A stretch of 39,176 bases of DNA from Minisyncoccota bacterium (GTDB taxonomy: Bacteria > Patescibacteriota > Minisyncoccia > Phycocordibacterales > UBA5272). Every line of letters starts with the position of its first letter. Position 1 is the stretch's first letter. Positions 22,270 to 39,176 of the stretch are shown here, piece after piece. The notes below the pieces were generated by a model, which saw only the letters and a list, made by a program, of their open reading frames with translations, searched no databases and had not been told where the DNA came from. The position numbers were made by a program, and so were the translations under genes. The stretch lies in NCBI GenBank assembly GCA_043784805.1, contig JAYVXX010000111.1, forward strand, positions 1 through 39,176, given 5' to 3'.

Positions 22270-25125
22270 ATGAAATCAGTGCCAATTGAGAACATCAACG
22301 CTCTGGCTGAACTGGAGCGATTGAAATGGGCTTGGAGCGCATCAGGCGATAATGAAGTCAGTATTTGCTGTCCTGTACACAAGGAGACTAATCCATCAGC
22401 GTTATTAAACACTGACAAGAATCTATGGAAATGCCAAGTGCCGTCTTGTAGCGGTAAGGGCGACATAGTGAACCTACTTTGTCATATCACGCTCACAGAT
22501 CGCAACGTGATGCTTGCTGATTTGTCAGAACGTTACGATCTGTATGAGGTCAAAGCTCTTAATCCAAGCATGGTAGAGACACTTCATGAACATATTTGGG
22601 AAGCTGGACCACTACTAAAAGCATTGTACGATCGTGGACTAACTGATGGAGATATTAGACGGGCAAAGCTAGGATTCAACGGAAAGCGTATCACCATACC
22701 AGTCTATGATGAAAAGCGCAATGTAGTGAATGTTCGCAAGTATCTTCCCGGTGCACCTGGCCCAGAGAAGATGATCAACACGTCAGGGTACAGCAAACCT
22801 AGAATATACCAGATTGAAGATGTAGTACAATTTGACAGTGTATGGTTACTAGGTGGTGAGTGTAAAGCTATAGTGGCTCGCAGACTACTTAACCCTCACG
22901 GAATAGGAGCTTGCAGTATTACGGCTGGTGAAGGTTCTTGGGAACATGAATTTGGAAAACTATTCCAAGGAAAGAATGTCTATGTTGCGATGGACGTGGA
23001 TAAGGCTGGGACGTTGGCTGCGAGAAAACTTGCTGAGAAGCTTATATCATTCACCAAGAATGTATACATCATCAACTTACCGCTTGACATTAAAAAATAC
23101 CCCAAGGGTGATATCAACGATTTTGTGGGTAATGAGGGTGCCACGGATAAAGAGTTACTTGCGATTACGCCGATACCGTTCACACGTGTCGTCACGCCTC
23201 AAGAGCAGCACGACCTAGGAGAAGTGAACACCAAGCTACTTCACGCAGCTAGGTCTGAGAACGTAGGTAGGAAGATATGTTTGGAAGCTGTAGTACACGC
23301 AAAGGTAGACCCACCCTACATAGTACCTAAGAACGTAGGTATTGAATGCACTAGAGATCAACCTAACTGTGAATGGTGTCCAGTAATGTCCAAGGAGCCA
23401 GATGATAAGAATGGTCTGACTTGGCTTACGGTGAAGGGCACATCACCCGGTTTGCTACAGATGATCGCCGCACCTATTAAGCAGATGCGAGATGCTATGC
23501 GTGAAGCTTTGGGCGTGCCAGTCTGTAAGGTAGCTGAGTTCACGGTGAAAGACCACCTCGACGTAGTAGATGTCAGGTTGTCTCCGCAAATTACTACAGA
23601 CGGCTCAAACGCAGATCACGTAGTGTTACCAGCCTATATCGTAGACAGGCCGGTGGACATAAACACTCCCTATAAGCTGACAGGCAGAGTATACCCGCAT
23701 CCTAAGAATCAGCAAGCTATTCTCTTGTTAGATGAAGTGACAGTAGCTGCAGATAGTCTGGACTGTTTCGATGATTCAGATATGTCAGAGCTGAAGATTC
23801 TCCAGCCAGTAGAGAATTCACTTGCTGGTATACAGATGAAGCTTGATGAAATCTATTCAGACTATGAAGCTAATGTAACTAATATCTATCAGCGTAGAGA
23901 CTTTCACTTATCGCTTGACCTGATGTATCACTCAGTGCTTTATATGGAGTTTGACGGTAAGCAGCAAAACGGATGGGTAAACGTCATCGCCGTAGGAGAC
24001 TCAGGACAGGGTAAGTCAGAAGCTAGTACAAGAATGAGAGATCACATAGGGTTAGGTGAGAGAGTAGACTGTAAGACCGCCAGCGTTGCTGGCCTACTAG
24101 GTGGTGTGCAAGACCTTAGTGGTCGATGGTTCGTGACATGGGGTGTCATTCCTATGCATGACCGTCGTGCGGTTATCCTTGAAGAAGTGAAGGGCGCATC
24201 GACTGAGACGTTGGGCACACTCACTGATATGCGTAGCTCCGGCAAAGCACAGATCAACAAGATAGCTAAGCATACAGCCTATGCCCGCACCCGGCTGTAT
24301 ATGATGACCAACGCTAGGGGCAAAGCCAAAATGTCTGATCACAACTTTGGTTGTGAAGCTATCTTGGAAGTGATGGGATCACTTGAAGACGTTAGACGGT
24401 TTGATGTCGGTATTATTCTCTCAGAGAATCAGATCAACGCAGCTGACATTAACAAGCTCAAAGAAGATCGACCAACTTGCGAGCATACCTACACTTCAGT
24501 GATAGCTAGAAAAGCTGTGCTATGGGCTTGGACCAGAAAGCGGGATCAAGTAATCATCGACCCAGACGCACAGAAAGAATGTATCTATGCCAGTAACTTA
24601 ATGTTCAGCAAGTTTGATGAGTCTATGCCACTAGTAGACAAGGGTACTATGAAGTACAAACTGGCCAGACTCGCCACAGCTCTGGCAGCAAGGTTATACT
24701 CTACCACAAACGATGGCAAGATGGTAATGGTTAAGAAGTGCCACGTAGAATATGTAGCGGCATGGATTGATCGGATGTACTCTGATAAACACTTTGGCTA
24801 TGTGGACTACTCACGAGCCAAGAGATATCAGGTACAAGTCATTGACCCTAATATAGTGCGTAGAAACTTGCTGGCTACCAAGCACCCGGCAGACTTAGTA
24901 GAGAACATCACTCACGCTACTGAGATCAACATCAATGATGTGATGGATTGGACAGAGACAGACTTTGCCGGTGCCCAACAACTACTATCGTTCCTGGTGC
25001 GCAAGCACGCCTTGTATCGTGTAAAACGATGGTATGTCAAGACGTCAGAATTCATTGAGTTACTAAAGCAGATGAGGATTGAAGGTATACCAACTGAACC
25101 AGAGATTGGAGAAGATAGACTATGA
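22270..25125 (+). CDS. DNA primase (CHC2 zinc finger + TOPRIM) fused to MCM-like AAA+ helicase
   Basis: Zinc finger: CCPVHKETNPS...WKCQVPSCSGKGD. TOPRIM: GGECKAI and YVAMDVDKAG. C-terminal module: Walker A AVGDSGQGKSE, SVAGLLGGV, Walker B-like AVILEEVKG, MMTNARG, and the Arg finger-like VRRFDVGIIL. Start ATG 22270 is preferred because ATG 22249 lies inside the hairpin stem. Confidence 0.85.
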   Translation: MKSVPIENINALAELERLKWAWSASGDNEVSICCPVHKETNPSALLNTDKNLWKCQVPSCSGKGDIVNLLCHITLTDRNVMLADLSERYDLYEVKALNPSMVETLHEHIWEAGPLLKALYDRGLTDGDIRRAKLGFNGKRITIPVYDEKRNVVNVRKYLPGAPGPEKMINTSGYSKPRIYQIEDVVQFDSVWLLGGECKAIVARRLLNPHGIGACSITAGEGSWEHEFGKLFQGKNVYVAMDVDKAGTLAARKLAEKLISFTKNVYIINLPLDIKKYPKGDINDFVGNEGATDKELLAITPIPFTRVVTPQEQHDLGEVNTKLLHAARSENVGRKICLEAVVHAKVDPPYIVPKNVGIECTRDQPNCEWCPVMSKEPDDKNGLTWLTVKGTSPGLLQMIAAPIKQMRDAMREALGVPVCKVAEFTVKDHLDVVDVRLSPQITTDGSNADHVVLPAYIVDRPVDINTPYKLTGRVYPHPKNQQAILLLDEVTVAADSLDCFDDSDMSELKILQPVENSLAGIQMKLDEIYSDYEANVTNIYQRRDFHLSLDLMYHSVLYMEFDGKQQNGWVNVIAVGDSGQGKSEASTRMRDHIGLGERVDCKTASVAGLLGGVQDLSGRWFVTWGVIPMHDRRAVILEEVKGASTETLGTLTDMRSSGKAQINKIAKHTAYARTRLYMMTNARGKAKMSDHNFGCEAILEVMGSLEDVRRFDVGIILSENQINAADINKLKEDRPTCEHTYTSVIARKAVLWAWTRKRDQVIIDPDAQKECIYASNLMFSKFDESMPLVDKGTMKYKLARLATALAARLYSTTNDGKMVMVKKCHVEYVAAWIDRMYSDKHFGYVDYSRAKRYQVQVIDPNIVRRNLLATKHPADLVENITHATEININDVMDWTETDFAGAQQLLSFLVRKHALYRVKRWYVKTSEFIELLKQMRIEGIPTEPEIGEDRL

Positions 25126-25586
25126 AACAAGTAAGAGACTTTCACAAGAAGTATGGTCTGCCGGTAGATGAAAACCTGCACGACCACAGTGGTATAGATA
25201 CTACACACTCTTTGAAGCTTCTGGCGGCAGAGATTCATACTATCACAGAAGATAGTTTGGAGAGAGCAGTAAGTACACGCAATGGTGGCGACCACCGATT
25301 GTGGCGTATGCATCTGTTACTAGGCGAAGTTGCGGAGATGGCCCAGAGCTTAGCAGATCGCAACGAGATAGAACTTGCTGACGCTCTGGGCGACTTGGAC
25401 TATGTAGTCAAGGGTACAGCGGTGACGTATAACATACCCTTAGACTATGTAGCGACAGAGATACACAAAAGCAATATGACCAAGCAACTATGTCTCCGTC
25501 CCAAAGGCCCAGACTACGTTCCGCCGGACATAGAAGGAGCTATAAAGAAGGGCAGAGAGTTAGCGGGGGGTGGGAAGCATGAGTAA
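25122..25586 (+). CDS. MazG-like (all-alpha) nucleoside triphosphate pyrophosphohydrolase
   Basis: LLLGEVAEMAQSL...ELADALGDLDYVVKGTA...IHKSNMTK shows the EExxE...ExxD metal-binding helix pattern of the MazG/dimeric dUTPase superfamily. Confidence 0.75.
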   Translation: MKQVRDFHKKYGLPVDENLHDHSGIDTTHSLKLLAAEIHTITEDSLERAVSTRNGGDHRLWRMHLLLGEVAEMAQSLADRNEIELADALGDLDYVVKGTAVTYNIPLDYVATEIHKSNMTKQLCLRPKGPDYVPPDIEGAIKKGRELAGGGKHE

Positions 25587-26613: not shown

Positions 26614-26863
26614 CAGAATATACATCGTAGTAGATTCACCACCCGGCTACAAAGTAAGTAGGAGATACACAAAAGAAGTTATGTTACAGTATCTAACTCT
26701 CGATGGACACTGGACAGAGACTGGAGACATATTCACTAACGTGTCTCAGCTACAAGGAATGAAAGTCAAGGACTATAACTCTACGGCTGTTGTCTTTAGA
26801 GCATTGACCAAGAAACTACTCTCATTGAGGAAGAAACATGATCTCAGCATTCGACACGATTGA
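26600..26863 (+). CDS. Hypothetical protein (87 aa)
   Basis: An ATG ORF overlapping both neighbouring genes. Confidence 0.45.
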   Translation: MGTSNRIYIVVDSPPGYKVSRRYTKEVMLQYLTLDGHWTETGDIFTNVSQLQGMKVKDYNSTAVVFRALTKKLLSLRKKHDLSIRHD

Positions 26864-27815
26864 CGAACTATGGCTCTATGCGGCTGACCTTATTTTCAAG
26901 TATGGTCACGACTGTCCGTCACGTGACGGAGCTAGTAGGGAGATAATGGGCTTTGCGGCAAGGCTAAACAACCCCATGGCTCACTTCCTGTTTAACCCTG
27001 TGCGTAAACTTAACCCAGCGTACGCTGCGGCAGAGATGATCTGGTATCTGTCCGGCGATCAGAACATTGACAGGATACTACCATATGCCAAACAGTATGA
27101 GCGATTCGCCAACGATGGTATAGCTCACGGAGCTTATGGCTACCGATGGAAGAAGGACAGAAATTTTCTAGCAGAGAAGGAATACACCGGTATACCCAGC
27201 AAGTCTCAGTTAGAAGCTATTATAGACTTGCTGGCGGTGAAGCAGGCTACTAGACAGGCAGTGATGACGATGTGGAATGCTGGAGACTTACTACACGCTA
27301 TTGTGGGAGACTACAAAGACCTGCCCTGTACTTTAAGCTTAAACTTTCTGGTCAGGGCCAACAAGCTCTATATGACCACCACGATGCGCTCCAACGACAT
27401 ATGGCTTGGACTACCATATGATATCTTCTGCTTCACTAGCTTACAGATTATCATAGCTTCAGCTCTGAACCTAGGCTTGGGGTGGTATCAGCACCAAGCT
27501 ATGTCGATGCATATCTATGACCGTAACATTGAGAAGTGTAGGCTTGCTGTCAACCCGCCAGAGTTTAAGTGCGGGCCGATGGATTATAGTCTGGAATCTA
27601 CCGGAGCTAGTATCTTCCAACGTATCAGATCACTAGTACAGACAGAAGAACATAACCAACGTTTTGCCACTGTGAGCAAAGTAGCTAACTTGGGAGGGGA
27701 GTTTTCCCTGTTCGAGAATTTATCTTGTATGGCAGCCTATCGTTGGTGCCCAGATAGAGCTTATGAGAGAGTGAGTACAAAACTTTTACAGGAGTACATG
27801 CATGTTAATTCTTGA
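26838..27815 (+). CDS. Thymidylate-synthase-fold pyrimidine C5 transferase with dCMP-type specificity residue (dCMP hydroxymethylase/methylase-like)
   Basis: Core ThyA motifs are present: AYGYRW, RQAVMTMWN, DLPCTLSLNFLV (Cys164, nt 27327-27329), TMRSNDIWLGLPYDIFCF and MHIYDRN. Asp195 (GAT 27420-27422) occupies the position of ThyA Asn177, as does Asp179 in T4 gp42. Confidence 0.8.
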   Translation: MISAFDTIDELWLYAADLIFKYGHDCPSRDGASREIMGFAARLNNPMAHFLFNPVRKLNPAYAAAEMIWYLSGDQNIDRILPYAKQYERFANDGIAHGAYGYRWKKDRNFLAEKEYTGIPSKSQLEAIIDLLAVKQATRQAVMTMWNAGDLLHAIVGDYKDLPCTLSLNFLVRANKLYMTTTMRSNDIWLGLPYDIFCFTSLQIIIASALNLGLGWYQHQAMSMHIYDRNIEKCRLAVNPPEFKCGPMDYSLESTGASIFQRIRSLVQTEEHNQRFATVSKVANLGGEFSLFENLSCMAAYRWCPDRAYERVSTKLLQEYMHVNS

Positions 27816-28329
27816 AGGAGCTGGTAGACTAGGTAAGTCTACCGCAGCGTCACGGTTAAACGAGTTGGCTATACAACGTGGATGGACGTGGGTACAGAAA
27901 AGAAAAATGAACAAACCTGGTCCAGACTTTGACTGGAGATATCAGAATCTCATCGAGCCAGAGATTATCCAAGATAGATTTCATCTAGGTGGGTTGGCCT
28001 ACCATCATCAAGATGAGACACAGCTTGATGAGATCAGAGTACAGATAATCAACAGCTGGATTCACGCGACTGGTGGTATAATCGTCTTGTTTTACACTGA
28101 TAACATGGCGTTCTATGGCAAACAGTTTTCCGCTTTCCGCCACGAGAATAAGCCAGACAATATGGATCACTACATCCTACAACAATCAGCAAACTATAAA
28201 TTCACTGACATGCAGAGATATGCTGATCATGTAGTAAGAGTGAACAGTGTCGATGACTTCCCTACTGACGACACGTTAAACTTCTGGCTCGATGAATGGG
28301 CCATCCGCCGTGGCTTCGCACTGGAGTAA
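27802..28329 (+). CDS. P-loop deoxynucleoside monophosphate kinase (thymidylate kinase-like)
   Basis: Walker A is LEGAGRLGKST. QDRFHLGGLAY resembles the TMK DRY..S..AY motif. The gene sits between the ThyA-fold and deaminase genes. Confidence 0.65.
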   Translation: MLILEGAGRLGKSTAASRLNELAIQRGWTWVQKRKMNKPGPDFDWRYQNLIEPEIIQDRFHLGGLAYHHQDETQLDEIRVQIINSWIHATGGIIVLFYTDNMAFYGKQFSAFRHENKPDNMDHYILQQSANYKFTDMQRYADHVVRVNSVDDFPTDDTLNFWLDEWAIRRGFALE

Positions 28330-28332: not shown

Positions 28333-28869
28333 ATGTACACAGAAATAGCTAGTAGTATCTTACAAACCATGGACTCTGCACAGAAGTACGCAGCAAGCAG
28401 AGTAACCTGTAAGCGTAAAGCTGTCGGCTGCGCAGCGGTGAGGATAGTAGGTGGCTTCTTAGATAAAACTCGATATACTTACAACGGACCAAGTATATCG
28501 AGAAGTGTCTGTACAAACATAGTAGGTAACTGTGGGTGCTCTCACGCAGAGCCACGGATGGTCATGAAGCTACTTCATGACGGATACGCAGGCGGGAAGA
28601 AGTTTGTCCTGCTGTGCGAGTATTCGCCATGTACTAATTGCGCGAACATTATACTGGACTCCAACCTGTTTCACGGAATCATATATCACAAGCTAACAGA
28701 GCACGATGTAAGGGGCAGAGACTACTTACTGCAAGCATGGCCGCTAGGTGTACTCACTACTGACCAGCTAGTAGCTTACATCAACGATAGTAGGTATGAG
28801 GGTATCACCTTAGCTACTAAGGTGGTAGTGTCTTCTGTGCGAGATTCTTTTGATCACTGGTCACTATGA
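28333..28869 (+). CDS. dCMP/cytidine deaminase-family zinc enzyme
   Basis: The zinc-binding motifs CSHAEPRMV (H-A-E) and SPCTNCANIIL (PCxxC) are present. Confidence 0.85.
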   Translation: MYTEIASSILQTMDSAQKYAASRVTCKRKAVGCAAVRIVGGFLDKTRYTYNGPSISRSVCTNIVGNCGCSHAEPRMVMKLLHDGYAGGKKFVLLCEYSPCTNCANIILDSNLFHGIIYHKLTEHDVRGRDYLLQAWPLGVLTTDQLVAYINDSRYEGITLATKVVVSSVRDSFDHWSL

Positions 28870-30857
28870 TAAATCCTAACTACAAATTAGTAACTAACAG
28901 CACTCAACTACCTAACGTGGCTGGGTGCGAGCACCTATTCTTAGACGTTGAGACATGTATTATGTCTGATGTCAAGAAGTGGGCAGGCTTGTACCCATTT
29001 AAGGGAGACAGAATTGCTGGCATAGCTCTCAAAACTTCCGACAGTCCAACGTGTTGGTATGTGCCGGTGAGACACAAGAATTATAACAACGTGGACTTCT
29101 CAGCGTATCAGAAGTGGCTCACGGAAATTATGTCTAAACGGGACGGGTGGTGGATCAATCATAACATCCTAATAGACATGGCTTTTGTGGCTCACGATGG
29201 TGTACCTATCCACCGTCAAGTAATAGATACTCTCACTACTGTGAAGCTACTAGACACTGACCGCATGAAATATGGGTTAAAACCTTACTGCAAGGAAGTG
29301 CTGGGCTTGCCGATGGCTGAGGAGCTAGGGATTAAAGCTGCTCTGAAAATTATCAAGTCTAAAAGCTACGGCGATGTACATCCTAACATAATGGGAGAAT
29401 ATGCTTGTAATGACGTGTTCGCCAACGAAATACTTCACCAGCACATAGAGTCTACTTTGCCGGAGCAGGTGCGAGGAGTGTATAAGACAGAGATACTACT
29501 AACTCCCATACTTCACGATATGGAGTTGGTAGGCCAGCAAGTAGTTAAGCAGGAGCTTATCCTAGATAAGCTTGCTGGCATCCGGCTACTCATAGAGCTG
29601 AGCTCAAAGTTGGCAGAGCTAACTAACAGAGAGTTCACTAACAGCTCTATATGTATCAGGGACATTTTCTGTAATATCCTGGGTCTACCTGTCTTGCTGA
29701 CCATTACTAAAAGAGATTCACTCACAGGTAGATACATAGATACTGGCAGGCCGTGTTTTGATAAGAAAGCTCTGGCACTATATGAAGTACATCCGCAGGT
29801 GACTGGGAATAAGACTAACAACAAGATAGTCCAGATGATCATGGCCTATCGTAAGGAGTCACAGCACCAGTCTCTGTTTGTTAATAGCTTCCTAGAGCTT
29901 ATGGATAGCTCAGAGCGTATTCATACTACCTACACGCAGCTAGTAAGGACAGGCCGGATGTCAGCCAAACGTCCCAATGGTCAGCAGAACACTAAACGCA
30001 GCAAGAGACTTATCAAGCCACGTAAGGGCAGATGCTTTATATCCTGCGATTATTCACAGATTGAGTTCAGGCTTATCGTTCACTATATCCGCGATCAAGA
30101 CGCCATCATGGCGTATCATGAGAATCCAAAGACAGATTTCCATGAATGGGTGGCGAACATGTGTCACATGGATCGATCCGCCGGCAAGACTATGAATTTC
30201 AGAATCGGGTTTGGTGCTGGTAAGTTCAACGTAGAAGCTGCTCTTGCTACAGATAAGAGTGTGGCGGCGGAAGTGTCTAAAGAAGTGGAAAAGATGGGCA
30301 TTGCTGACGACCAGAAAAACAGGATGTTCCATCAGCTATGTAAGGACAGGGCGGCAGCGTTGTATCATAAGTATCATGAGACTCTGCCCGGTATTAAGAA
30401 GACATCTGCGGAGGCAGAAGCAGTGTGTAAACGTCGTGGGTTTGTGTTTAACAATCACGGCAGACGGAGACACTTACCACCGAAAGCAGCAAGAAAAGCA
30501 TTTAATAACCTGTGCCAAGGTGACGCGATGGATATCATTAAGGAGCGTATGGTGGCGATATCACACCTATATAACAAGAAGATGCGCGACTGGGACATTA
30601 GAATTGCTGCTAACGTCCACGATGAGATTCTCTTTGATGCGCCTGAAGAGCTAATGCTAAACACGGAAGTCCACGACTATATATTGTCTGTGCTCCAGAC
30701 GCCTGACGTGAAATACTCCGTGCCGATTATCGCTGGACTGGGCGTATCTAAGAATAATTGGGGTGAGGCCAGCGGCGATCTGTCCGTGCTGGAGGACGGG
30801 TCGAAAGTTAAAACCGTACCTGACGGAGCTAAAATTTTGGCCGGAAAACTGCGCTAA
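28866..30857 (+). CDS. Family A DNA polymerase with 3'-5' exonuclease domain
   Basis: Exo I is FLDVET, Exo II HNILIDM and Exo III YACNDV. Pol motif A is DYSQIEFRL, motif B RSAGKTMNFRIGFGAG and motif C NVHDEILF. Confidence 0.95.
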   Translation: MINPNYKLVTNSTQLPNVAGCEHLFLDVETCIMSDVKKWAGLYPFKGDRIAGIALKTSDSPTCWYVPVRHKNYNNVDFSAYQKWLTEIMSKRDGWWINHNILIDMAFVAHDGVPIHRQVIDTLTTVKLLDTDRMKYGLKPYCKEVLGLPMAEELGIKAALKIIKSKSYGDVHPNIMGEYACNDVFANEILHQHIESTLPEQVRGVYKTEILLTPILHDMELVGQQVVKQELILDKLAGIRLLIELSSKLAELTNREFTNSSICIRDIFCNILGLPVLLTITKRDSLTGRYIDTGRPCFDKKALALYEVHPQVTGNKTNNKIVQMIMAYRKESQHQSLFVNSFLELMDSSERIHTTYTQLVRTGRMSAKRPNGQQNTKRSKRLIKPRKGRCFISCDYSQIEFRLIVHYIRDQDAIMAYHENPKTDFHEWVANMCHMDRSAGKTMNFRIGFGAGKFNVEAALATDKSVAAEVSKEVEKMGIADDQKNRMFHQLCKDRAAALYHKYHETLPGIKKTSAEAEAVCKRRGFVFNNHGRRRHLPPKAARKAFNNLCQGDAMDIIKERMVAISHLYNKKMRDWDIRIAANVHDEILFDAPEELMLNTEVHDYILSVLQTPDVKYSVPIIAGLGVSKNNWGEASGDLSVLEDGSKVKTVPDGAKILAGKLR

Positions 30858-31057: not shown

Positions 31058-31080
31058 CTTGGGCTGTGGTAAAGAGAGTT

Positions 31081-31649: not shown

Positions 31650-31676
31650 TCGAAACAGCTCCTTGAAGGAGATGTC

Positions 31677-31958: not shown

Positions 31959-31961
31959 CTC

Positions 31962-31990
31962 TTTACTTTTAACCTATTATAGTCTATAGT
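31962..31990 (+). promoter_or_regulatory. Sigma70-type early promoter TTTACT-17-TATAGT
   Basis: -35 at 31962-31967 and -10 at 31985-31990. It has the AACTCTTTACTT block and begins 4 nt after the upstream stop. Confidence 0.6.
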
Positions 31991-32051
31991 AGGTTCTCTG
32001 ACGGCTGCCGACAGTCTCCGATGGAGACGGGCAAATAGTTTCAGTTTTCTA

Positions 32052-32069
32052 TAGTAGGAGAATGTTATG
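32052..32069 (+). promoter_or_regulatory. Leader/RBS cassette variant TAGTAGGAGAATGTTATG
   Basis: Ends in ATG 32067. Confidence 0.6.
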
Positions 32070-32675: not shown

Positions 32676-32698
32676 TTAGTCTGTCTGCTCAGACACTC

Positions 32699-32730
32699 AC
32701 ACCTATCCAGTCTAACGGCTGGATAGGTGT
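32699..32730 (+). terminator. Hairpin terminator
   Basis: ACACCTATCCAG (32699-32710) pairs with CTGGATAGGTGT (32719-32730) around an 8-nt loop and is followed by TTAAACTCTT. It starts 24 nt after the stop. Confidence 0.55.
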
Positions 32731-32739
32731 TTAAACTCT

Positions 32740-32760
32740 TAACCAGTAGGAGCAGCCATG
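32740..32760 (+). promoter_or_regulatory. Leader/RBS cassette variant TAACCAGTAGGAGCAGCCATG
   Basis: Ends in ATG 32758. Confidence 0.55.
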
Positions 32761-33063
32761 AGCGAGAAACAAGCCGTTCGGTCCATCCAAGAGAAGTCTA
32801 CTGACCTAGACAATCGGGTAAGATACTACCGATACTTGGTGGAGAACAACGACAAACTACGTGCAGAGCTACTATCTAAGTACAACCAGGCTAAGTCTGA
32901 CCTAGATAGGCACGATGAGAAGGTAGTGATGGCGGAGTCCATCATAGCTGAGTGCATAGGTAAGAAGGACAAGCTTGTCCATGAGGTTAAGGTAGTACAG
33001 GCCACTCCAGCTTTGGAGAAGCTTGCTGCCATCCGTAGGAAGTTCCTTGAATTATCTGCTTAA
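32758..33063 (+). CDS. Small coiled-coil-like protein (101 aa)
   Basis: Leader cassette plus ATG. The composition is charged with a heptad-like pattern. Confidence 0.65.
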   Translation: MSEKQAVRSIQEKSTDLDNRVRYYRYLVENNDKLRAELLSKYNQAKSDLDRHDEKVVMAESIIAECIGKKDKLVHEVKVVQATPALEKLAAIRRKFLELSA

Positions 33064-33487
33064 CACGATAGACGTGTTCACTGACCAGCCTACTTTCGAC
33101 TTGGAAGTTAGCTTGCTGGCCACCACTCCGGTGACAGGCTACGATCTGGTGAGTAGTGTTCAACCTATATCCAGAGTAGTTTATGCCCCATTCTCCGATA
33201 CGTTGAGCCTGAGCTTGACCGGCGACTTGGGAACGGTGCTGGACAACGTAGCGTTGCCCGTATCTGGCCAGCAACTCCTACAGAGACTCACGTTTGAGAG
33301 TAGGTCTGAGACGATACTGTTCAGTGGGTCAGTAGCGGGTGCCGCACCGACTTTCGCAGACATCTCCGTGCCCGACGTGTTGGTACACGTAACGGTGGTG
33401 CCTGAGCCTCAACTATTTGTAGGAGTATTATGTATATTGGCGTTTGTCAGCAGCCGGTTGAATCGTTCCCAAAATGGCAAGACCTAG
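33023..33487 (+). CDS. ATG-less ORF ending in a PEP-CTERM-like sorting signal (start uncertain: TTG 33023 or GTG 33074)
   Basis: It is the only long ORF covering the 366-nt gap 33064-33429. It has no Met codon in 154 codons. GGAG at 33015-33018 precedes TTG 33023. The C-terminus is VVPEPQLFVGVLCILAFVSSRLNR (PEP at 33401-33409). Confidence 0.4.
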   Translation: MLPSVGSSLNYLLNTIDVFTDQPTFDLEVSLLATTPVTGYDLVSSVQPISRVVYAPFSDTLSLSLTGDLGTVLDNVALPVSGQQLLQRLTFESRSETILFSGSVAGAAPTFADISVPDVLVHVTVVPEPQLFVGVLCILAFVSSRLNRSQNGKT

Positions 33488-34182
33488 AAGTGAACACCCT
33501 TGTAGGTATTCCAGGAAGTGCGGGCAAGTATCCTATCGGTAGTGAACCCGCTAACTGGGTTGCCGCAGCGAATGCGGCGGGTTTGTATCAAATCCGGGAA
33601 ATCGTAGGCAAGCCGGAAGTAGATGCGGCAAACTCACTCCTATTAGCTTGGAGTCACGTCGATGAGCCAGACCTAAAGGGTGTTACCCTTGAGCAGCTGA
33701 AGGTTGCTCACGATACTGGCAGGCTAGCAGACATGGTGAGGCCGGTGCCATGGTTCATGAACTTTGCTGGAGGAATGGTATTAGCCAAGGTGCCTAATAG
33801 TCCGACATCGTCGTGGTATCAGCAAGCCTCACAGCAGGCTAGCTGGATCGGCTCTGACATCTATCCTGTATCGGGCTGGAACAACGCTCTGGACCTATTC
33901 ACGCCGGGTCAGTGCGTAGACAAGCTTGCTGGTCTGTGTCCTGGCAAGAAACAGTTTATGTATGTCGAGTGTTGCCGGCAAGGTCTGGGCTGGCTACCGG
34001 GTGGCGGACGTTCACCCACAGTCGCTGAGGTGAATCTTATCGTAGCTCAGGCAGAGCGTAGGGAGGTTGCTGGCATCATATGGTTCCCGATTCAGCCAGA
34101 GGGTGGCTTTCTGTTTGATGCTACTACACCCGACGTCAAGCAGGCTATGAGAGAGATCAATCACAAGTTAAGACGATGGTGA
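33430..34182 (+). CDS. Putative glycoside hydrolase-like TIM-barrel protein (clan GH-A-like)
   Basis: IGVCQQP...W.DLEVNTLVG resembles beta1/alpha1. WSHVDEPD resembles the beta4 (N/D)EP acid/base motif. FMYVECC is a candidate beta7 nucleophile. This is by eye only. An alternative GTG start at 33490 would remove the overlap with the upstream ORF. Confidence 0.5.
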   Translation: MYIGVCQQPVESFPKWQDLEVNTLVGIPGSAGKYPIGSEPANWVAAANAAGLYQIREIVGKPEVDAANSLLLAWSHVDEPDLKGVTLEQLKVAHDTGRLADMVRPVPWFMNFAGGMVLAKVPNSPTSSWYQQASQQASWIGSDIYPVSGWNNALDLFTPGQCVDKLAGLCPGKKQFMYVECCRQGLGWLPGGGRSPTVAEVNLIVAQAERREVAGIIWFPIQPEGGFLFDATTPDVKQAMREINHKLRRW

Positions 34183-34334
34183 TGCCCAGCTCCCGGCTGC
34201 TGATAACGTGAGCAACATTGATACTAAGTTCACCCGGTAGTGTGGGTTTGAGCTAGTCAGTGTAGGAGTTATCAGGGTGAGTGCCGCATCTCTAGTGGCT
34301 AGGTAGTAGTCACACACGGCATAGACTACCACGG

Positions 34335-34362
34335 GTGGTAGTGGGTTAACACTCACTACCAC
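34335..34362 (+). promoter_or_regulatory. 9-bp hairpin immediately upstream of the ligase start, part of an alternative-pairing triplet
   Basis: GTGGTAGTG (34335-34343) pairs with CACTACCAC (34354-34362). The loop is GGTTAACACT. A third complementary segment, CTACCAC, is at 34326-34332. Confidence 0.35.
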
Positions 34363-34366
34363 TCTT

Positions 34367-35221
34367 ATGATGTTCACTGTAGATAACTTACTCCGACCCA
34401 AAGACTACGCTTGCCAGTTAGTGCAGTGGCTACAGACTAAGCGTGATGGTCTGAGACTACTAGTATCCAAGGATACAGCAGGATACATCACGGCCATGAC
34501 TAGGGAGGGCAAGACAGACTTCTGGCCGGAACTTAGGAGGATCAAAGTAGGTTGGGTGGATAGTATAGTAAAGATACCGATGGGCACAGCTCTTGACTGT
34601 GAACTGGATTCACCCAGCACTCAAGCTACCGACATCAAGACTCTTGTGTTGGCCAGCTCTGACAAGCTGGATCTATCTCCATTCGCCATGCCTATGTATA
34701 AGGGTTATGACTGTAGGAACGTAAAGATAATCCTGGCGAACAACTATATCAGAGACATGGGTTTCACTCCTGTTCCGGTGATGGAGATAGACGATGAGCC
34801 AGTAACTCTCAGCGATAGAGTGCTGGACAGCCTCAAGCGTGAAGCTACTAAGTTAGGTACGGAAGGGTGGATCGCCAAGTTAGCCCACTACAATGGTTGG
34901 TACAAGATCAAGCCAATCAGAACGGTAGACTGTGTGGTCACAGGCTATGAGATTAGTACCTCAGACACTTACTTTGGAGGACTAAAGAACATACAGGTAT
35001 CTCTGTATGACAACGAGTGTCAGCTAGTAAAGATTGCTGACGTTGGTAGCGGCTTTGAAGGACACTACAAGAACAACGTTGACCCTACTACACTATTAGA
35101 TAGGGTATGTGAGATAGCTTATGACTCCCTTGCCAGCAAGGGTAAGCTAAAATTCCCACGGTTCCTACAGTGGCGTGATGACAAGCCTGCCGTAGATTGC
35201 ACGAAAGACCAACTATTATGA
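34367..35221 (+). CDS. ATP-dependent DNA ligase (small T7-type)
   Basis: Motif I is KRDGLR (Lys25, AAG 34439-34441), motif IV EGWIAK and motif V WYKIKP. Confidence 0.85.
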   Translation: MMFTVDNLLRPKDYACQLVQWLQTKRDGLRLLVSKDTAGYITAMTREGKTDFWPELRRIKVGWVDSIVKIPMGTALDCELDSPSTQATDIKTLVLASSDKLDLSPFAMPMYKGYDCRNVKIILANNYIRDMGFTPVPVMEIDDEPVTLSDRVLDSLKREATKLGTEGWIAKLAHYNGWYKIKPIRTVDCVVTGYEISTSDTYFGGLKNIQVSLYDNECQLVKIADVGSGFEGHYKNNVDPTTLLDRVCEIAYDSLASKGKLKFPRFLQWRDDKPAVDCTKDQLL

Positions 35222-35544
35222 TTGAATGCACCTTTATTCACACAGGCCAAACGTATTTCTTTGCCACACTACATGGCAAGTTTGCGCACACTGAGGAAGT
35301 AGATGGTGGGCCAATTATCTCTGCCGGCCCACATCAAGTCTACTTGAAGAATACTACCATCACACTGGAGAAAGCTCTGAAGGATGGGCTGGTGGTTAAG
35401 ATGGGTGATGGAAGATTGGAGGATTGCCGGTCAACAAAGAAGATGCCGGAGAAAATCACAATCTTACTCCAGAATCTTGCTGATGCCTATAAGGATATTG
35501 AGGACTATCTCACAGACCCAGAGCGATGGGATGGGATGTCATGA
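35218..35544 (+). CDS. Hypothetical protein (108 aa)
   Basis: ATG 35218 forms an ATGA overlap with the ligase stop. The track start at 35197 is a TTG. Confidence 0.55.
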   Translation: MIECTFIHTGQTYFFATLHGKFAHTEEVDGGPIISAGPHQVYLKNTTITLEKALKDGLVVKMGDGRLEDCRSTKKMPEKITILLQNLADAYKDIEDYLTDPERWDGMS

Positions 35545-36374
35545 GAGATAACTATGTTCACGGCTCTGCTAGTATCCAGCAATTCTTTAACTGGATCAAC
35601 GAGAGGCAGGCTATATGGTGGCGTAGGAGTAAAGGTCACCCAAAGCCATGGACTACTGACCCGGTGATGCTGGACTATAAGTTCACTAACTGTTTCAGAG
35701 AATTAGACGCTGGTACAGTGGCTCTGAGACTTATGGAGTGTGGTCACATAGATAAGCCACTACTTATCTGGAACGCATGGTGGTATAGGTTGTTCAACTG
35801 GCATGAACACGCTACCAAACTAGGGTTTATATTTCACTACAATACCCTTGAAGAGTACATGCTGGACCTACATAAGCGTGACGGGAGAATCTTCACCGGT
35901 GCCCACATGGTACGTGGGTTAAATGGTGAACGTAAAGTGTTCTCATATCTACGTCTGGCCAAGCAACTCTATGAAGAGCGTGACGCTATATACCAGCAAG
36001 TTAAGCTTGCTGGCACCATAGAAGGTGCCTACAACGTCTGTCTAGGTTACTATCTGATGGGTGACTTCACTAGCTATGAAGTAGCCTGCGATATGCGCTG
36101 GACGGTGCTTAGGGATGCTCCAGACAAGCTTACGTGGGCTAACCCAGGCAACGGAGCTATACGTGGGTTAAAACGTCTAGGGTTATCTCCTACGTTGGCA
36201 GGAATGATACAGATCTTTGAGATGAAGGATTACTATCTTGCTTATTGGGTCAAGAACGCACCGGTGCCTTTTGAACTTAGAGAGATTGAACATAGTCTCT
36301 GTGAGTTTGACAAATATGAGCGGGTCAGGACTGGCCAAGGCAGACCACGTTCCAAGTACAATGGGAGGATATAA
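35541..36374 (+). CDS. Helical enzyme resembling the 5-hmdU DNA hypermodification family (5-hmdU DNA kinase helical domain / aGPT-pyrophosphorylase-like)
   Basis: ATG 35541 forms an ATGA overlap; an alternative ATG is at 35526. The N-terminal signature W..ERQAIWWRRSKGHPKPWTTDPVMLDYKFTNCFRELDAGT matches the recalled pattern ER..I...R..G.P.PWT.DPIL..YRF.N.YRE.D..T. FTGAHMV and MGDFTSYEVACDMRW are also present. The assignment is from memory, not from a search. Confidence 0.55.
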   Translation: MRDNYVHGSASIQQFFNWINERQAIWWRRSKGHPKPWTTDPVMLDYKFTNCFRELDAGTVALRLMECGHIDKPLLIWNAWWYRLFNWHEHATKLGFIFHYNTLEEYMLDLHKRDGRIFTGAHMVRGLNGERKVFSYLRLAKQLYEERDAIYQQVKLAGTIEGAYNVCLGYYLMGDFTSYEVACDMRWTVLRDAPDKLTWANPGNGAIRGLKRLGLSPTLAGMIQIFEMKDYYLAYWVKNAPVPFELREIEHSLCEFDKYERVRTGQGRPRSKYNGRI

Positions 36375-36383
36375 GGAGTAGGT

Positions 36384-36674
36384 ATGAGTACGAAACTTGC
36401 TGCCAAGGCGATTCTAGTTGCACTAGACGCACTTGACAGAGTCATTAAGCTGGAGATTAAGATGTCAGAAGCTCTCGATAAGATCAACAAAGACCTTGCA
36501 GACATTAACACTTTTAGCAACGGCCTGGCCACAGAAGTCACCGCCCTGCGCGACAAGGTCGCCAATGGGATCACACCCGCTGAAGCTGCTGGTGTGACCA
36601 CTCAGCTTGATGGTATCGCTGCCAAGCTGCAAGCACTTGCTGCTAATCCAGCAGCTCCTGTGCCGGTTGCATAA
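36384..36674 (+). CDS. Small Ala/Leu-rich coiled-coil protein (96 aa)
   Basis: ATG preceded by AGGAG at 36374-36378. It is followed by a strong hairpin. Confidence 0.6.
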   Translation: MSTKLAAKAILVALDALDRVIKLEIKMSEALDKINKDLADINTFSNGLATEVTALRDKVANGITPAEAAGVTTQLDGIAAKLQALAANPAAPVPVA

Positions 36675-36680
36675 CTAACT

Positions 36681-36718
36681 AAACATAGGCTCACTGAGAA
36701 GTCGGTGAGCCTATGTTT
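36681..36718 (+). terminator. Hairpin terminator (14-bp perfect stem plus 3 further pairs, GAAG loop)
   Basis: AAACATAGGCTCAC (36681-36694) pairs with GTGAGCCTATGTTT (36705-36718). It starts 7 nt after the stop. Confidence 0.6.
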
Positions 36719-36720
36719 CC

Positions 36721-36751
36721 TAACTAGTAATAGAAACTGAGGTACAACATG
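36721..36751 (+). promoter_or_regulatory. Leader cassette remnant TAACTAGTAATAGAAACTGAGGTACAACATG
   Basis: It shares the TAACTAGTA head with the conserved cassette but has a different SD (GAGG). It ends in ATG 36749. Confidence 0.35.
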
Positions 36752-36994
36752 GATGAAGAATATATGCTGGCCTATCTTGAGATGCGTAAGGCAATCTTGA
36801 TGGCACAGAAGCAAGTGTTGTTTATGTATACTCTGGAAGGCGATGAAGAGACTAAGAATAGGCTCAAGGCTATGAGTATGCTACTTCACGCCGACACAGT
36901 AAGTATGCCTAAAAACTACCCAAAGACCGCACTACAGGTACAATCGGGTAATGGGGATGCCTTTAGACTGGAGTTCTTAAAACATGGACTATGA
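36749..36994 (+). CDS. Hypothetical protein (81 aa)
   Basis: An ATG ORF with a GAGG SD. Confidence 0.55.
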   Translation: MDEEYMLAYLEMRKAILMAQKQVLFMYTLEGDEETKNRLKAMSMLLHADTVSMPKNYPKTALQVQSGNGDAFRLEFLKHGL

Positions 36995-37484
36995 TAAACC
37001 AGTAGGTTCACACCACGGCATACCAGACCTAACACAACGTGATATCACGCTGCTTGAAGCTCATGCTTTATGGGTAAAAACAGCCATCGCTGCTGGCTCC
37101 TATCCAGTCGGGTGGATGCCTCATCACCCTGACTGGATCAAGTCTAGGTTGTTCTGGCGTATTAGGTCTGGAAAGCAGCCGTTGGAGTATCCGCCACCAA
37201 CATGCTACTCTTGCCCGTGGTATGAGCTAATAGAAATGCCGGAAGTGTCTCACTCTACTTATGAGATAGTGCGGACTGTTGATTTTCTTAGTAATGATAT
37301 CAAGTCTGTCATAGTAGCTCAGTGTCGGTATGTATACATCTCTGGACCTATGGATAACCCTACTCAAGAAAACCCTATGATCATTAAATATGGTCAATAC
37401 AAGTTCCGTGCGTGGAACGGTGCGAATACGTCTAGGATGGAGCCAGCAGGGTATATTAAACTGGAGTCTACTGATGGGTTGTGA
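36984..37484 (+). CDS. Hypothetical protein (166 aa)
   Basis: An ATG ORF overlapping both neighbours. No family recognised. Confidence 0.6.
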   Translation: MDYDKPVGSHHGIPDLTQRDITLLEAHALWVKTAIAAGSYPVGWMPHHPDWIKSRLFWRIRSGKQPLEYPPPTCYSCPWYELIEMPEVSHSTYEIVRTVDFLSNDIKSVIVAQCRYVYISGPMDNPTQENPMIIKYGQYKFRAWNGANTSRMEPAGYIKLESTDGL

Positions 37485-37848
37485 TATTCACCTACATACC
37501 GAAGTTAAGGTTGCTGGCAAGTGGCATCACATGGGTCATCCCTTTATTCGCCGACACTACTTGTTGTTTGCGAAGATGGCTAATGTGCGCAATGACCCAG
37601 TGAGAGTCATTGACCCTATTAAACGTCATCTGGGCATCCCTGAAGACGCTACAGAGCTGACCAAGCTGTGTTTCGAGTTGGATCGTGAGAATTATTCTGA
37701 CCTACGTGAAGGATGGCTGGACAGCATTCATATTAGGGAGTTATATGAATGGTACGATAAGCTTAATGAAGCTCATGGCCTTGAAGGGTGGTGGGCTTTC
37801 AGAATACCGTTTGAGGATGTTCGGTTTATCTTTTGGTTTGATAACTAA
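37474..37848 (+). CDS. Hypothetical protein starting MGCDIHLHTE (124 aa)
   Basis: ATG 37474 is preceded by GGAG at 37464-37467. The track start at 37390 overlaps the upstream gene by 95 nt. I recall the MGCDIH N-terminus as a recurrent phage protein family of unknown function. Confidence 0.6.
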   Translation: MGCDIHLHTEVKVAGKWHHMGHPFIRRHYLLFAKMANVRNDPVRVIDPIKRHLGIPEDATELTKLCFELDRENYSDLREGWLDSIHIRELYEWYDKLNEAHGLEGWWAFRIPFEDVRFIFWFDN

Positions 37849-37857
37849 GGAGCACAA

Positions 37858-38277
37858 ATGAAAATCTACATTGCAGCGTCGTTTACTCAGAGAGACTATG
37901 AAGCTGCTGACATGAAGAACTGCTTGCTGGCAGCCGGTCACGAAGTAACTAGCCGATGGCTGGACCCGCTACACCAGAAACACAACAGCTATGGTATGGA
38001 GGACAAGTTTGCCGCTATGGACCTTACCGATATCCGGCGGTCTGAAGCTATGGTCATCATCACGGAGGGTGACGGCAAGCAGACTACTAAAGGTGGCAGG
38101 CACACAGAACTAGGTATAGCTCTGGAGCGTCACATACCTATCTTCTTGTATGGTCCCAAGGAGCAGGTGTTTCACAACCTGCTGAGTATCCAGCAAGTTA
38201 TTACTACAAGTCGGTTGATATTCGAGTTGGCCAAACACAGTAAGACTGCTTCAGGCAGCGTTGAAAGCTCTGGCTGA
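37858..38277 (+). CDS. Nucleoside 2-deoxyribosyltransferase / dNMP N-glycosidase (DNPH1/Rcl)-like protein
   Basis: MKIYIAASF..., ...DLTDIRRSEAMVII..., and GGRHTELGIALERHIPIFLY match the fold pattern MKIYxAGP...D...I..sD.vv....s.Gt..E.G.A...gkPv. The SD is AAGGAG at 37847-37852. Confidence 0.55.
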   Translation: MKIYIAASFTQRDYEAADMKNCLLAAGHEVTSRWLDPLHQKHNSYGMEDKFAAMDLTDIRRSEAMVIITEGDGKQTTKGGRHTELGIALERHIPIFLYGPKEQVFHNLLSIQQVITTSRLIFELAKHSKTASGSVESSG

Positions 38278-38385
38278 CCGGCTGTGTAATTGTGGATATC
38301 TAGTACCTAGTCTCAATGGCAATCATCCAAAACTACACAGTAAATCGTGTGCTTTCGTGGCGGCTCTGAATATGGAGTATAAACT

Positions 38386-39029
38386 ATGAATGATATTATT
38401 TGCGGTGATTGTGTAGAGAAAACTAAAAACATTTCAGACTCTAGTATAGACATGGTTTTATTCAGTCCACCGTATGACAAAATAAGGGACTACAACGGAT
38501 TTGAAATCGACATGAAATCATTGGGAGCAGAGTACTGAAAGATGGAGGTGTATGTGTAATAGCGGACGGAACTAAGAATTTTGCTAAAAGTCTGACTACT
38601 TGTCGTATAACTTTGGGTCGGGTTTCAACTGTTTGAACATCTGATTTATAGCAAACACGGTAGACCTGGTGCTTGGTGGAACCAACGATTCAGAGTAGAC
38701 CATGAATCAATCCTTGTATTCTTCAAGGGTGCCAGACCAAAATTTTTGATAAGCAACATTTATCGGTACCATCAAAAACTGCAGGTAGAGGCTGGCACTA
38801 CTCAACATCAAACTCTGAAGGCAACTGGTTGAAGTTAAAACATCCGGCTACATTTCCAGATAAGTTAGCTGAAGACTTGATCAAATGTTTTACTCAGGAA
38901 GGTGAAACAGTCCTTGATCCAACCACTTTAGTCAAGGCTAAACAATGTAAAAGGAATTACATCGGCATAGACTCATCTACCTATTACACTGAAATATGTA
39001 AACATCGTTTAGACTTGGAGACAAGATGA
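38386..39029 (+). pseudogene. Decayed N6/N4 DNA methyltransferase (N6_N4_Mtase family): at least 3 frameshifts plus loss of the FxGxG AdoMet motif
   Basis: Homology is split over four frames. Fragment 38386-38538 reads MNDIICGDC...DMVLFSPPY then stop. Fragment 38535-38636 reads LKDGGVCVIADGTKNF... then stop. Fragment 38611-38832 reads GFQLFEHLIYSKHGRPGAWWNQRFRVDHESILVFFKGARPKF. Fragment 38706-39029 reads ...KLKHPATFPDKLAEDLIKCFTQEGETVLDP--TTLVKAKQCKRNYIGID. The third shift lies in the A4T5 run at 38739-38747. By eye the region is more AT-rich than its flanks. Confidence 0.75.
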
Positions 39030-39176
39030 AAATCTTAGACATTCGCGGCACAAACGGATCAGGCAAGAGTTCTGTAGTAACCTTGCTGGCAAAGGGTGCA
39101 GGCAGGGCGGTGTCCCAGACACCGTGCGGGATGCCATATACTATACTTGCGACGGAGAAACACGGTCTGATAGCAG
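39026..39176 (+). CDS. P-loop NTPase/kinase, N-terminal 50 codons (3' end outside the window)
   Basis: ATG 39026 forms an ATGA overlap with the methyltransferase remnant stop. Walker A is GTNGSGKSS. The frame is open to the window end. Confidence 0.6.
   Translation, partial: MKILDIRGTNGSGKSSVVTLLAKGAGRAVSQTPCGMPYTILATEKHGLIA

Follow-up and report, generated by a model that had tools for sequence, protein, structure and literature searches.

A stand-alone HMUDK_hel protein of an uncultured phage and its possible role in resolving undecorated 5-hydroxymethyl-pyrimidines

Described hypermodification systems and the gene under study

The conversion of remaining 5-hydroxymethyl-deoxyuridine (5-hmdU) in phage DNA to thymine was first described around 1980, and we know of no enzyme assigned to this step. 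The gene analyzed here encodes a protein of the HMUDK_hel family (Pfam PF18723, '5-hmdU DNA kinase helical domain') and is located on a stretch of 39,176 nucleotides deposited under the name of a Minisyncoccota bacterium (assembly GCA_043784805.1, contig JAYVXX010000111.1; hereafter referred to as the window). The window is a phage genome featuring all of its genes on the forward strand, and the phage is an uncultured one of approximately 53 kb. As the best overall explanation, held tentatively and at somewhat less than an even chance, it is proposed that the HMUDK_hel protein could be a DNA-level enzyme, attacking C6 of the base by means of a cysteine residue and resolving undecorated 5-hydroxymethyl-pyrimidines, possibly to thymine.

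The closest described counterparts are PaMx11 gp50, M6 gp55, PhiW-14 gp72, and the C-terminal domain of SP10 gp186, to which the protein of the window is orthologous. They share with it the full-length PF18723 domain, an all-helical predicted fold (TM-score up to 0.80), and the same invariant motif R-E-I-E-H-x-L-C-E-F-D-K-Y, and their phages, like that of the window, encode a ThyA-fold hydroxymethylase, a P-loop 5-hmdU DNA kinase, and an amino-acid:DNA transferase (AADT). In some records, PF18723 homologues are named 'aGPT-Pplase1'. However, the identity between the window protein and HMUDK_hel members of cultured phages amounts to 24–35% only, and the gene arrangements differ: PaMx11 gp50 has the kinase gp49 on one side and the dUMP hydroxymethylase gp51 on the other, and in SP10, HMUDK_hel forms the C-terminal half of the kinase gp186 beside the dUMP hydroxymethylase, whereas the window protein is unfused, follows a ligase gene, and adjoins neither kinase nor ThyA. 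Moreover, the hydroxymethylase of the window is of an Asp-type, in contrast to the Asn-type enzymes of the cultured-phage systems.

Virion DNA of the phages SP10, PhiW-14, M6, and ViI was described to be free of 5-hmdU, which ends either as the hypermodified base or as thymine (PMC8989533). With M6 gp54, phosphorylation reaches only about 23% of 5-hmdU, and the DNA of phage 15599 contains approximately 77% T and 23% dapT, with no route to T having been proposed. Treatment of the M6 AADT, gp51, with borohydride resulted in thymidine via an exocyclic methylene intermediate, demonstrated for this enzyme class (PMC8989533), which indicates that the AADT fold is able to set up methylene chemistry. 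M6 gp55 could be omitted from the reconstitution with the product being retained, and SP10 gp186 deprived of its C-terminal part, i.e., the kinase domain alone, still produced 5-phosphomethyl-deoxyuridine (5-PmdU) (PMC8989533). The original prediction, according to which biochemical work had demonstrated activity of the family on 5-hmdU, therefore needs correction, since this statement holds for the P-loop kinase and for AADT/Pplase2 and not for HMUDK_hel. Structural and biosynthetic papers from 2024 and 2026 make no mention of HMUDK_hel, and literature searches by the Pfam name and accession returned nothing.

Family assignment, fold, and conserved motif

The predicted open reading frame (ORF) proved to be real, as it translates to 277 aa and includes the quoted N-terminal string FFNWINERQAIWWRRSKGHPKPWTTDPVMLDYKFTNCFRELDAGT. 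An alternative in-frame ATG is located at position 35526, five codons upstream of the start; position 35541 was chosen by both the database cluster and the gene call of the parent contig. Profile comparison with HMUDK_hel, proposed earlier as a check of the assignment, resulted in a strong full-length match far beyond chance (E = 1.6e-39; 136.4 bits at a cut-off of 25; model positions 3–277 of 281), and PHROG 2396 ('unknown function') was matched with an E-value of 1.7e-44. Membership in the HMUDK_hel family can thus be regarded as practically certain, and the homology call of the original prediction named the right family, but several inferences drawn from it had to be revised.

No Pfam family besides HMUDK_hel was matched at E ≤ 0.01; in particular, neither the ADDT model (PF18724) nor the related Pplase3 model (PF18746) gave a match, and NCBIfam and PADLOC searches were likewise negative. 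The anticipated relationship to the aGPT-Pplase/ADDT models is accordingly visible by fold and profile–profile alignment only. The protein lacks a Walker A motif (P-loop) and a match to PF18748, the 5-hmdU DNA kinase being encoded by a separate ORF, and a BLASTP comparison with the ADDT protein of the same phage yielded no significant similarity (E = 1.9).

In total, more than 1,200 HMUDK_hel homologues were found. Nearly all of the best 120 are 270–330 aa long and carry PF18723 only, so that the stand-alone domain organization, correctly noted for the window protein, is the usual architecture rather than a peculiarity. Homologues from cultured phages were detected in M6/YuA/PaMx11-like Pseudomonas phages, Bordetella phages, PhiW-14, SP10-like Bacillus phages, Acinetobacter phages, and Pam3, these groups being the known thymidine-hypermodifying phages; PaMx11 gp50, likewise a PF18723 protein, is 34% identical to the protein of the window. 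At the nucleotide level, a megablast search of positions 26000–39176 against 50,697 phage records gave no match, indicating that the window phage has no close cultured relative. The gene is an ordinary new member of a known family, and its interest rests in the family and not in this instance.

The AlphaFold2 model of the protein (mean predicted local distance difference test score, pLDDT, 95.7; predicted TM-score 0.91) is all-helical and comprises 15 helices. Foldseek against PDB returned one top and sole meaningful match, 8z2m, representing the 5-PmdU glycinyltransferase PaMx11 gp46 (probability 0.98, TM-score 0.49, E = 0.12). Among viral models, the ranking was led by SP10 gp186 (TM-score 0.80), followed by other HMUDK_hel proteins, 'Pplase1' proteins, and AADTs, with TM-scores of 0.78 and 0.67 for the HMUDK helical proteins of phiRSL1 and PhiW-14, respectively. 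Alignment of the HMUDK_hel family with the AADTs using hhalign gave E-values of 3.3e-4 (global) and 9.2e-5 (local, probability 59%), whereas the family profile produced no match at E ≤ 10 against all PDB sequences, where the AADT link was provided by the fold search alone.

The alignment places E250-H251-S-L-C254 of the window protein on E-T-I-L-C of PaMx11 gp46. In 15599 Pplase2, E222 and T223 bind an essential metal, and C226 is the nucleophile activating 5-PmdU (PMC13458397). E250 and C254 align with the corresponding Glu and Cys of gp46 and with E222 and C226 of 15599 Pplase2, the Cys following the Glu by four residues on one helix, and the second metal ligand, Thr, is replaced by His251, with His being found in 83 of 85 homologues. 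The complete C-terminal motif reads E250-H251-S-L-C254-E255-F-D257-K258, and the conserved acidic and Cys residues are situated on the C-terminal AADT-type helix. Across the 85 homologues (32–60% identity), the family motif R-[ED]-[IV]-E-H-x-L-C-E-[FY]-D-K-Y and about 40 other, mostly charged or polar, positions are at least 95% conserved; many invariant charged residues were also seen in an alignment of 58 sequences. All family-invariant residues are present in the window protein, namely R22, D40, N50, R53, D56, E180, R208, R212, E250, H251, C254, E255, D257, K258, and R261.

Based on the model and these alignments, the protein appears to be a divergent paralogue of the AADT fold which seems to have retained the catalytic apparatus of the transferases (aGPT-Pplase2, PF18724; PaMx11 gp46, M6 gp51, and 15599 Pplase2), i.e., E250 as putative metal-binding residue, H251 in place of Thr, C254 as putative nucleophile, and the adjacent acid E255. 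As the catalytic residues of the transferases are retained, it is taken to be an enzyme and not a scaffold, and it probably is catalytic and acts on DNA. Common to both families are an apparently related helical fold containing a helix-hairpin-helix (HhH) element and the identical Glu-x-x-x-Cys spacing; in contrast to the AADTs, the window protein shows no Pfam ADDT match, a TM-score of 0.49 only, an invariant His instead of the Thr ligand, and a pocket that is near-invariant rather than donor-specific, and the transferase reaction in vitro proceeds without HMUDK_hel. The HhH-like hairpin W199-A-N-P-G-N-G-A-I-R-G (residues 199–209) may mediate binding to DNA.

Since fold and catalytic motif are as in AADT, HMUDK_hel might also represent a second group transferase performing AADT chemistry with another nucleophile (amine, thiol, water, or phosphate/pyrophosphate), leading to a second, so far undetected modification or to the historically reported pyrophosphoryl intermediate. 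AADT-type genes were indeed described to occur often as paralogous pairs (PMC8989533), and classical work reported the pyrophosphorylated derivative 5-PPmdU, although the kinases add a single phosphate. However, nucleoside analyses of M6, ViI, PaMx11, PhiW-14, SP10, and 15599 DNA revealed one hypermodified base plus canonical T, and the pocket residues of HMUDK_hel are near-invariant across chemically different decorations, whereas AADT pockets vary with the donor. HMUDK_hel genes also occur alongside glycosyltransferases, for which no phospho-intermediate is expected. A second transferase function is thus considered unlikely.

The weaker PDB matches, comprising the HhH glycosylases MjOgg and AlkA as well as the queuosine-nucleotide hydrolase DUF2419 (TM-scores 0.3–0.43), suggest a further alternative, namely a hydroxymethylase-associated enzyme of the glycosylase type or one working at the nucleotide level. 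Such an enzyme might remove an unwanted base or nucleotide (uracil, thymine, or host-type DNA) by excision or hydrolysis, or might use free hydroxymethyl-dNMP as its substrate. The tight adjacency of HMUDK_hel to ThyA and its translational coupling to a DNA ligase in the lineage of the window would be consistent with such a function. These structural matches are weak, however (probability ≤ 0.33): an HhH-like hairpin is present, but the glycosylases reached TM-scores of 0.32–0.34 with probabilities ≤ 0.25, and no glycosylase Pfam family was matched. Furthermore, the canonical Asp behind the HhH hairpin is missing, the conserved residues that look catalytic fall instead on the helix matching the Cys helix of AADT, and the linkage to the ligase is limited to one lineage with an unconserved intervening ORF. 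This function is the least probable of those considered here.

Genomic neighbourhood and proposed function of HMUDK_hel

To describe the genomic context of the family, 80 IMG/VR loci and relatives were profiled locally with hidden Markov models, resulting in 85 loci with HMUDK_hel, for which neighbourhoods of 10 kb were considered. The tabulation of ThyA co-occurrence, likewise proposed earlier, showed that 71 of the 85 loci have a ThyA-like gene at a distance of up to 10 kb; it shares the strand of HMUDK_hel in every case, and for 59 of these 71 loci, the distance is at most 4 kb. In loci without ThyA, Tet_JBP was not among the 25 commonest Pfam families listed. PolA was found in 70 loci, whereas the kinase and ADDT were detected in 17 and 13 loci, respectively. 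In 49 loci, a TET-associated-type glycosyltransferase (TAGT, PF20691; verified by Pfam) was present instead, often accompanied by UDP-glucose dehydrogenase, epimerase, FkbM methyltransferase, and other sugar enzymes; phages of this type probably glycosylate a hydroxymethyl-pyrimidine. Co-occurrence of kinase/ADDT with TAGT was zero in this sample, and even within the lineage of the window, close relatives possess either the kinase/ADDT or the TAGT module.

The arrangement with TAGT is also found in cultured phages: the Brevibacterium phage LuckyBarnes features the order ThyA-TAGT-TAGT-hel, its HMUDK_hel protein gp38 being the best Pfam match seen (4.6e-68). LuckyBarnes gp38 and other TAGT-type members belong to the same family and carry the same invariant motif as the window protein; their phages encode TAGT and nucleotide-sugar enzymes with no detectable kinase or AADT, unlike the window phage, which carries both of the latter. 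Marine IMG/VR contigs show the order hel-TAGT-ThyA-nuclease-PolA, and in Pam3, the order is Pplase2-x-P-loop-hel-Nmad5-ThyA. Examples of TAGT-type loci are L032 (10843–11619), L011 (11021–14436), L087 (LuckyBarnes, 3858–7873), L049, and L058. Among 185,579 species genomes, 29 HMUDK_hel loci were identified, mostly on phage-sized contigs of metagenome-assembled genomes or in prophages, and 26 of them had ThyA, typically directly adjacent. Cassettes of the type hel-ThyA-~270-aa protein were also observed in large bacterial contigs of 0.5–2.7 Mb from Hyphomicrobium/Hyphomicrobiaceae (L099, L102, and L117); they are presumably prophages and represent the sole cellular-genome setting seen for the family.

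HMUDK_hel and the hydroxymethylase accordingly form a conserved core around which the decorating cassette is exchanged. ThyA being constant and the decorating modules being variable, the function of HMUDK_hel appears to be tied to the hydroxymethylase and not to one decorating module. Fusion to, or adjacency with, a P-loop kinase, from which the family received its name, is not truly a defining feature, as the window protein is unfused and a kinase within 10 kb was found in 17 of the 85 loci only; with HMUDK_hel residing mostly beside TAGT in the absence of kinase and ADDT, the Pfam name is misleading.

These observations also bear on the possibility that HMUDK_hel is a non-catalytic or weakly catalytic accessory subunit which, bound to DNA, would flip or mark 5-hydroxymethyl-pyrimidines and hand them over to the kinase or TAGT, thereby setting the efficiency or sequence context in vivo. 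Such a role would agree with the fusion to the kinase in SP10 gp186, with the position next to the kinase in PaMx11-, M6-, and Pam3-like phages and next to TAGT in many others, with the lack of an obvious DNA-binding domain in the kinase (185 aa) and TAGT (approximately 260 aa), and with the dispensability in vitro expected for an efficiency factor. An adaptor, however, needs no invariant nucleophilic Cys, metal ligands, and adjacent acid across proteins of about 30% identity. M6 gp54 alone provides partial, site-limited phosphorylation (about 23%) near the in vivo level, and in the window, HMUDK_hel is separated from the kinase by 2.6 kb and seven genes. No residue was found to separate kinase-linked from TAGT-linked HMUDK_hel proteins, i.e., to co-vary with the type of partner enzyme. 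The accessory role is thus doubtful, being nevertheless the strongest of the three alternatives. A 'kinase helper domain' was demoted as the main explanation because the SP10 kinase domain alone is active and 49 of the 85 loci feature TAGT with no kinase.

Regarding the preferred explanation of a DNA-level enzyme for undecorated bases, the following mechanism can be envisaged from structure, motifs, and context. After binding to DNA, the protein would turn a 5-hydroxymethyl- or 5-phosphomethyl-pyrimidine into an extrahelical position; the flipped base would be attacked at C6 by Cys254, and the leaving group of the 5-substituent would be expelled, giving rise to an exocyclic methylene. This intermediate would be resolved differently from that of AADT, with an outcome common to all decoration types: undecorated hydroxymethyl-pyrimidines may be turned into the canonical methyl base (5-hmdU into T), for which a hydride donor would be required. 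Addition of Cys to C6, formation of the methylene, and hydride transfer represent the established mechanism of thymidylate synthase (TS), in whose second half-reaction a 5-methyl base is obtained from the exocyclic 5-methylene. The likeness is one of analogy only: the fold of the window protein is unrelated, its proposed substrate is a base in polymeric DNA, and no membership in the TS family is claimed. Thymidylate synthesis would thus be divided between the ThyA-like hydroxymethylase, carrying out the first half at the nucleotide stage, and HMUDK_hel, carrying out the reductive half on the polymer. Considering the genomic context, the function of HMUDK_hel would belong with wholesale pre-replicative incorporation of the hydroxymethyl base. 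Formation of thymine by the window protein is speculative and rather improbable at present, and the more general assumption that HMUDK_hel proteins convert the undecorated majority of 5-hmdU in newly replicated phage DNA to thymine is less probable still.

Several points weigh against this proposal. In the literature, no activity has been shown for any HMUDK_hel member; M6 gp55 and ViI gp160 were included in lysate reconstitutions for which no thymidine formation was reported, and full-length SP10 gp186 supplied with ATP alone produced 5-PmdU and not T. A recognizable cofactor-binding domain for NAD(P)H, flavin, or folate was not found in the window protein, and the family has a single invariant Cys. 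The structural relationship to 8z2m has a weak E-value, with the Pfam ADDT model remaining silent. In TAGT-type phages with no kinase nearby, the enzyme would have to expel hydroxide and not phosphate, and the Asp-type hydroxymethylase renders the base in the DNA of the window phage (hmU or hmC) uncertain. The association with ThyA is partly phylogenetic inertia, since the loci are not independent. Finally, the Rhodoferax phage P26218 (36 kb) encodes, one after the other, an AADT, a P-loop kinase, an Asn-type ThyA, and an HD-domain protein (9773–12780), and no HMUDK_hel homologue was detectable in its genome; this natural 'knock-out', possessing ThyA, kinase, and AADT, indicates that the function of HMUDK_hel is not obligatory.

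The hypermodification genes of the window phage

The window phage encodes a full 5-hydroxymethyl-pyrimidine hypermodification toolkit consisting of NTP pyrophosphatase, hydroxymethylase, thymidylate-kinase (TMK)-like kinase, deaminase, PolA, DNA kinase, and AADT (Table 1). Its 3′ part was completed by means of the parent contig L002 (Logan SRR23617254, 53.4 kb), which matches the window without any difference across the 13,636 bases of their overlap and extends past its 3′ end. The kinase, noted in the original prediction as not fused to HMUDK_hel, corresponds to the truncated ORF at the very end of the window: it is a 185-aa PF18748 protein located 3′ of the HMUDK_hel gene and running on to the window-equivalent position 39583 (L002 13486–14043), with ADDT and, after it, a ribonucleotide reductase gene following in the parent contig. 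The ThyA-fold hydroxymethylase is encoded by the same phage, 7.7 kb 5′ of HMUDK_hel.

Table 1. Genes of the HMUDK_hel region in the window and its extension by the parent contig
Feature	Position	Strand	Evidence or source
MazG/PRA-PH-like nucleoside-triphosphate pyrophosphohydrolase	25122..25586	+	Pfam PRA-PH E = 4.8e-8
ThyA-fold pyrimidine hydroxymethylase, Asp-type (RSNDIWLGLPYDIF)	26838..27815	+	Pfam Thymidylat_synt E = 1.1e-26
Thymidylate-kinase-like dNMP kinase, 175 aa, Walker A GAGRLGKS	27802..28329	+	Family profile vs PDB
dCMP/cytidine deaminase family protein, 178 aa	28333..28869	+	Pfam dCMP_cyt_deam_1 E = 2.5e-6, 27.7 bits (cut-off 25)
Family A DNA polymerase (PolA) with 3′-5′ exonuclease domain	28866..30857	+	DNA_pol_A E = 1.5e-43; DNA_pol_A_exo1 3.5e-6
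ATP-dependent DNA ligase, first in translationally coupled chain	34367..35221	+	phrog_114 E = 1.6e-19; Pfam DNA_ligase_A_C 1.9e-6
108-aa ORFan between ligase and HMUDK_hel, ATGA overlaps at both ends	35218..35544	+	No family match
HMUDK_hel protein, 277 aa, no fused domain	35541..36374	+	Pfam PF18723, AlphaFold2 model, Foldseek, motif
5-hmdU DNA kinase (P-loop, 185 aa), first 50 codons in window	39026..39176	+	PF18748 HMUDK_HMUD1 E = 1.9e-9
78-aa ORF past window end	39580–39816 (window-equivalent)		Parent contig
ADDT/amino-acid:DNA transferase, 285 aa, past window end	39800–40657 (L002 14260–15117)		PF18724 E = 3.9e-17, motif AETSLCDF

The second P-loop gene left unassigned by the original prediction was identified as a TMK-like dNMP kinase and not as a paralogue of the DNA kinase. 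As its single-sequence AlphaFold model reached a pLDDT of 33, the assignment was made by comparing the family profile with PDB, which matched SPbeta YorR (2axp; E = 1.5e-8) and thymidylate kinases (9e-5 to 6e-4); with HMUDK, the P-loop/Walker A segment alone aligns. This protein is a candidate for phosphorylating the hydroxymethyl-dNMP. Similarly, the MazG/PRA-PH-like protein, whose gene is kept at the head of the module in relatives, is a candidate for excluding a canonical dNTP.

The best PDB match of the hydroxymethylase was the CMP hydroxymethylase MilA (5e-24, compared to 1e-15 for TS). In the specificity rule described previously, Ser at the position of MilA Ala176 marks enzymes using deoxyribose substrates, and Asp at the position of MilA Asp186 and T4 Asp179 marks those using cytosine substrates, the latter position being occupied by Asn in TS and dUMP hydroxymethylases (PMC5175136). 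The window enzyme features Ser at the Ala176 position and Asp, as in MilA and T4 gp42, at the position of Asp186, where PaMx11 gp51 has Asn, and is thus predicted from its sequence to use a deoxycytidine nucleotide. Among the loci, 16 Asp-type and 53 Asn-type ThyA enzymes were distinguished; the TMK-like kinase was found in 15 of the 16 Asp-type and none of the Asn-type loci, and the deaminase in 15 and one, respectively. The Asp-type ThyA, TMK-like kinase, and deaminase thus form a conserved triad, located in the window between positions 26838 and 28869. This suggests either that dCMP is hydroxymethylated, deaminated to 5-hm-dUMP, and then phosphorylated by the TMK-like kinase, an alternative route to 5-hmdU DNA fitting the downstream HMUDK and ADDT genes, or that the phage DNA contains 5-hydroxymethyl-deoxycytidine (5-hmdC). 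Within HMUDK_hel, the type of ThyA is reflected at two positions only, 90 (H/T) and 246 (L/M), of which position 90 (codon at approximately 35808–35810) is the sole non-conservative one: all proteins from Asp-type loci have His, and 94% of those from Asn-type loci have Thr. Position 90 may be a specificity determinant or reflect plain phylogeny.

The ATGA overlaps reported for the chain of ligase, 108-aa ORF, and HMUDK_hel were confirmed, with the ligase stop and the start of the 108-aa ORF sharing positions 35218–35221 and the stop of the latter and the HMUDK_hel start sharing 35541–35544. The 108-aa ORF exists as described, and so does the truncated one at 39026. The ligase is located 5′ of HMUDK_hel in 10 of the 16 loci of the Asp-type ThyA lineage. 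For the 108-aa ORF, no Pfam, PHROG, or NCBIfam match was obtained, and no homologue was found among the 86 loci searched (L001–L086). Coupling of HMUDK_hel to the ligase is thus real for the window but was rejected as a general functional feature of the family, because it was confined to loci of the Asp-type lineage and the ORF lying between the two genes lacks conservation.

Additional observations concern other genes of the window and public annotations. Positions 38386–39029 harbor an N6/N4 DNA methyltransferase gene split by at least three frameshifts and devoid of the FxGxG SAM motif (VLDPTTLVKAK), probably a pseudogene or, alternatively, the result of an assembly error; the relative L003 possesses two intact methyltransferases of the same family. 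The nucleoside 2-deoxyribosyltransferase fold includes dNMP N-glycosidases, and a 139-aa protein (37858–38277) with a borderline match to this family (PF05014, 28.4 bits at a cut-off of 28.8) could be part of nucleotide-pool remodelling. An AAA_5 (MoxR/CobS-like) ATPase (phrog_249, 'porphyrin biosynthesis') followed by a DUF7192 protein (15463–17977) forms a pair recurrent in phages, and no tRNA genes were detected in the window. In RefSeq, the experimentally proven 5-hmdU DNA kinase PaMx11 gp49 (L001 8426–8995) is erroneously labelled 'terminase small subunit', a label also carried by the feature over the HMUDK_hel tblastn match in PAKlein3 (PP931173.1, 14778–15626).

Thymidine-hypermodifying phages are widespread and relevant for phage therapy (Pseudomonas, Acinetobacter, and Salmonella), and tools for DNA labelling are being developed from their enzymes. 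Reconstitution has been achieved for the route leading to the decorated base, leaving HMUDK_hel as one conserved cluster gene with no function and the thymine step with no enzyme. If true, the formation of thymine would explain why HMUDK_hel travels with the hydroxymethylase whatever the decoration, be it an amino acid, polyamine, or sugar, and would also account for its fusion to the kinase in SP10 as well as for its dispensability for the hypermodified base in vitro. With the catalytic motif being kept, HMUDK_hel tracking the hydroxymethylase, and the family occurring in TAGT clusters, the question becomes directly testable.

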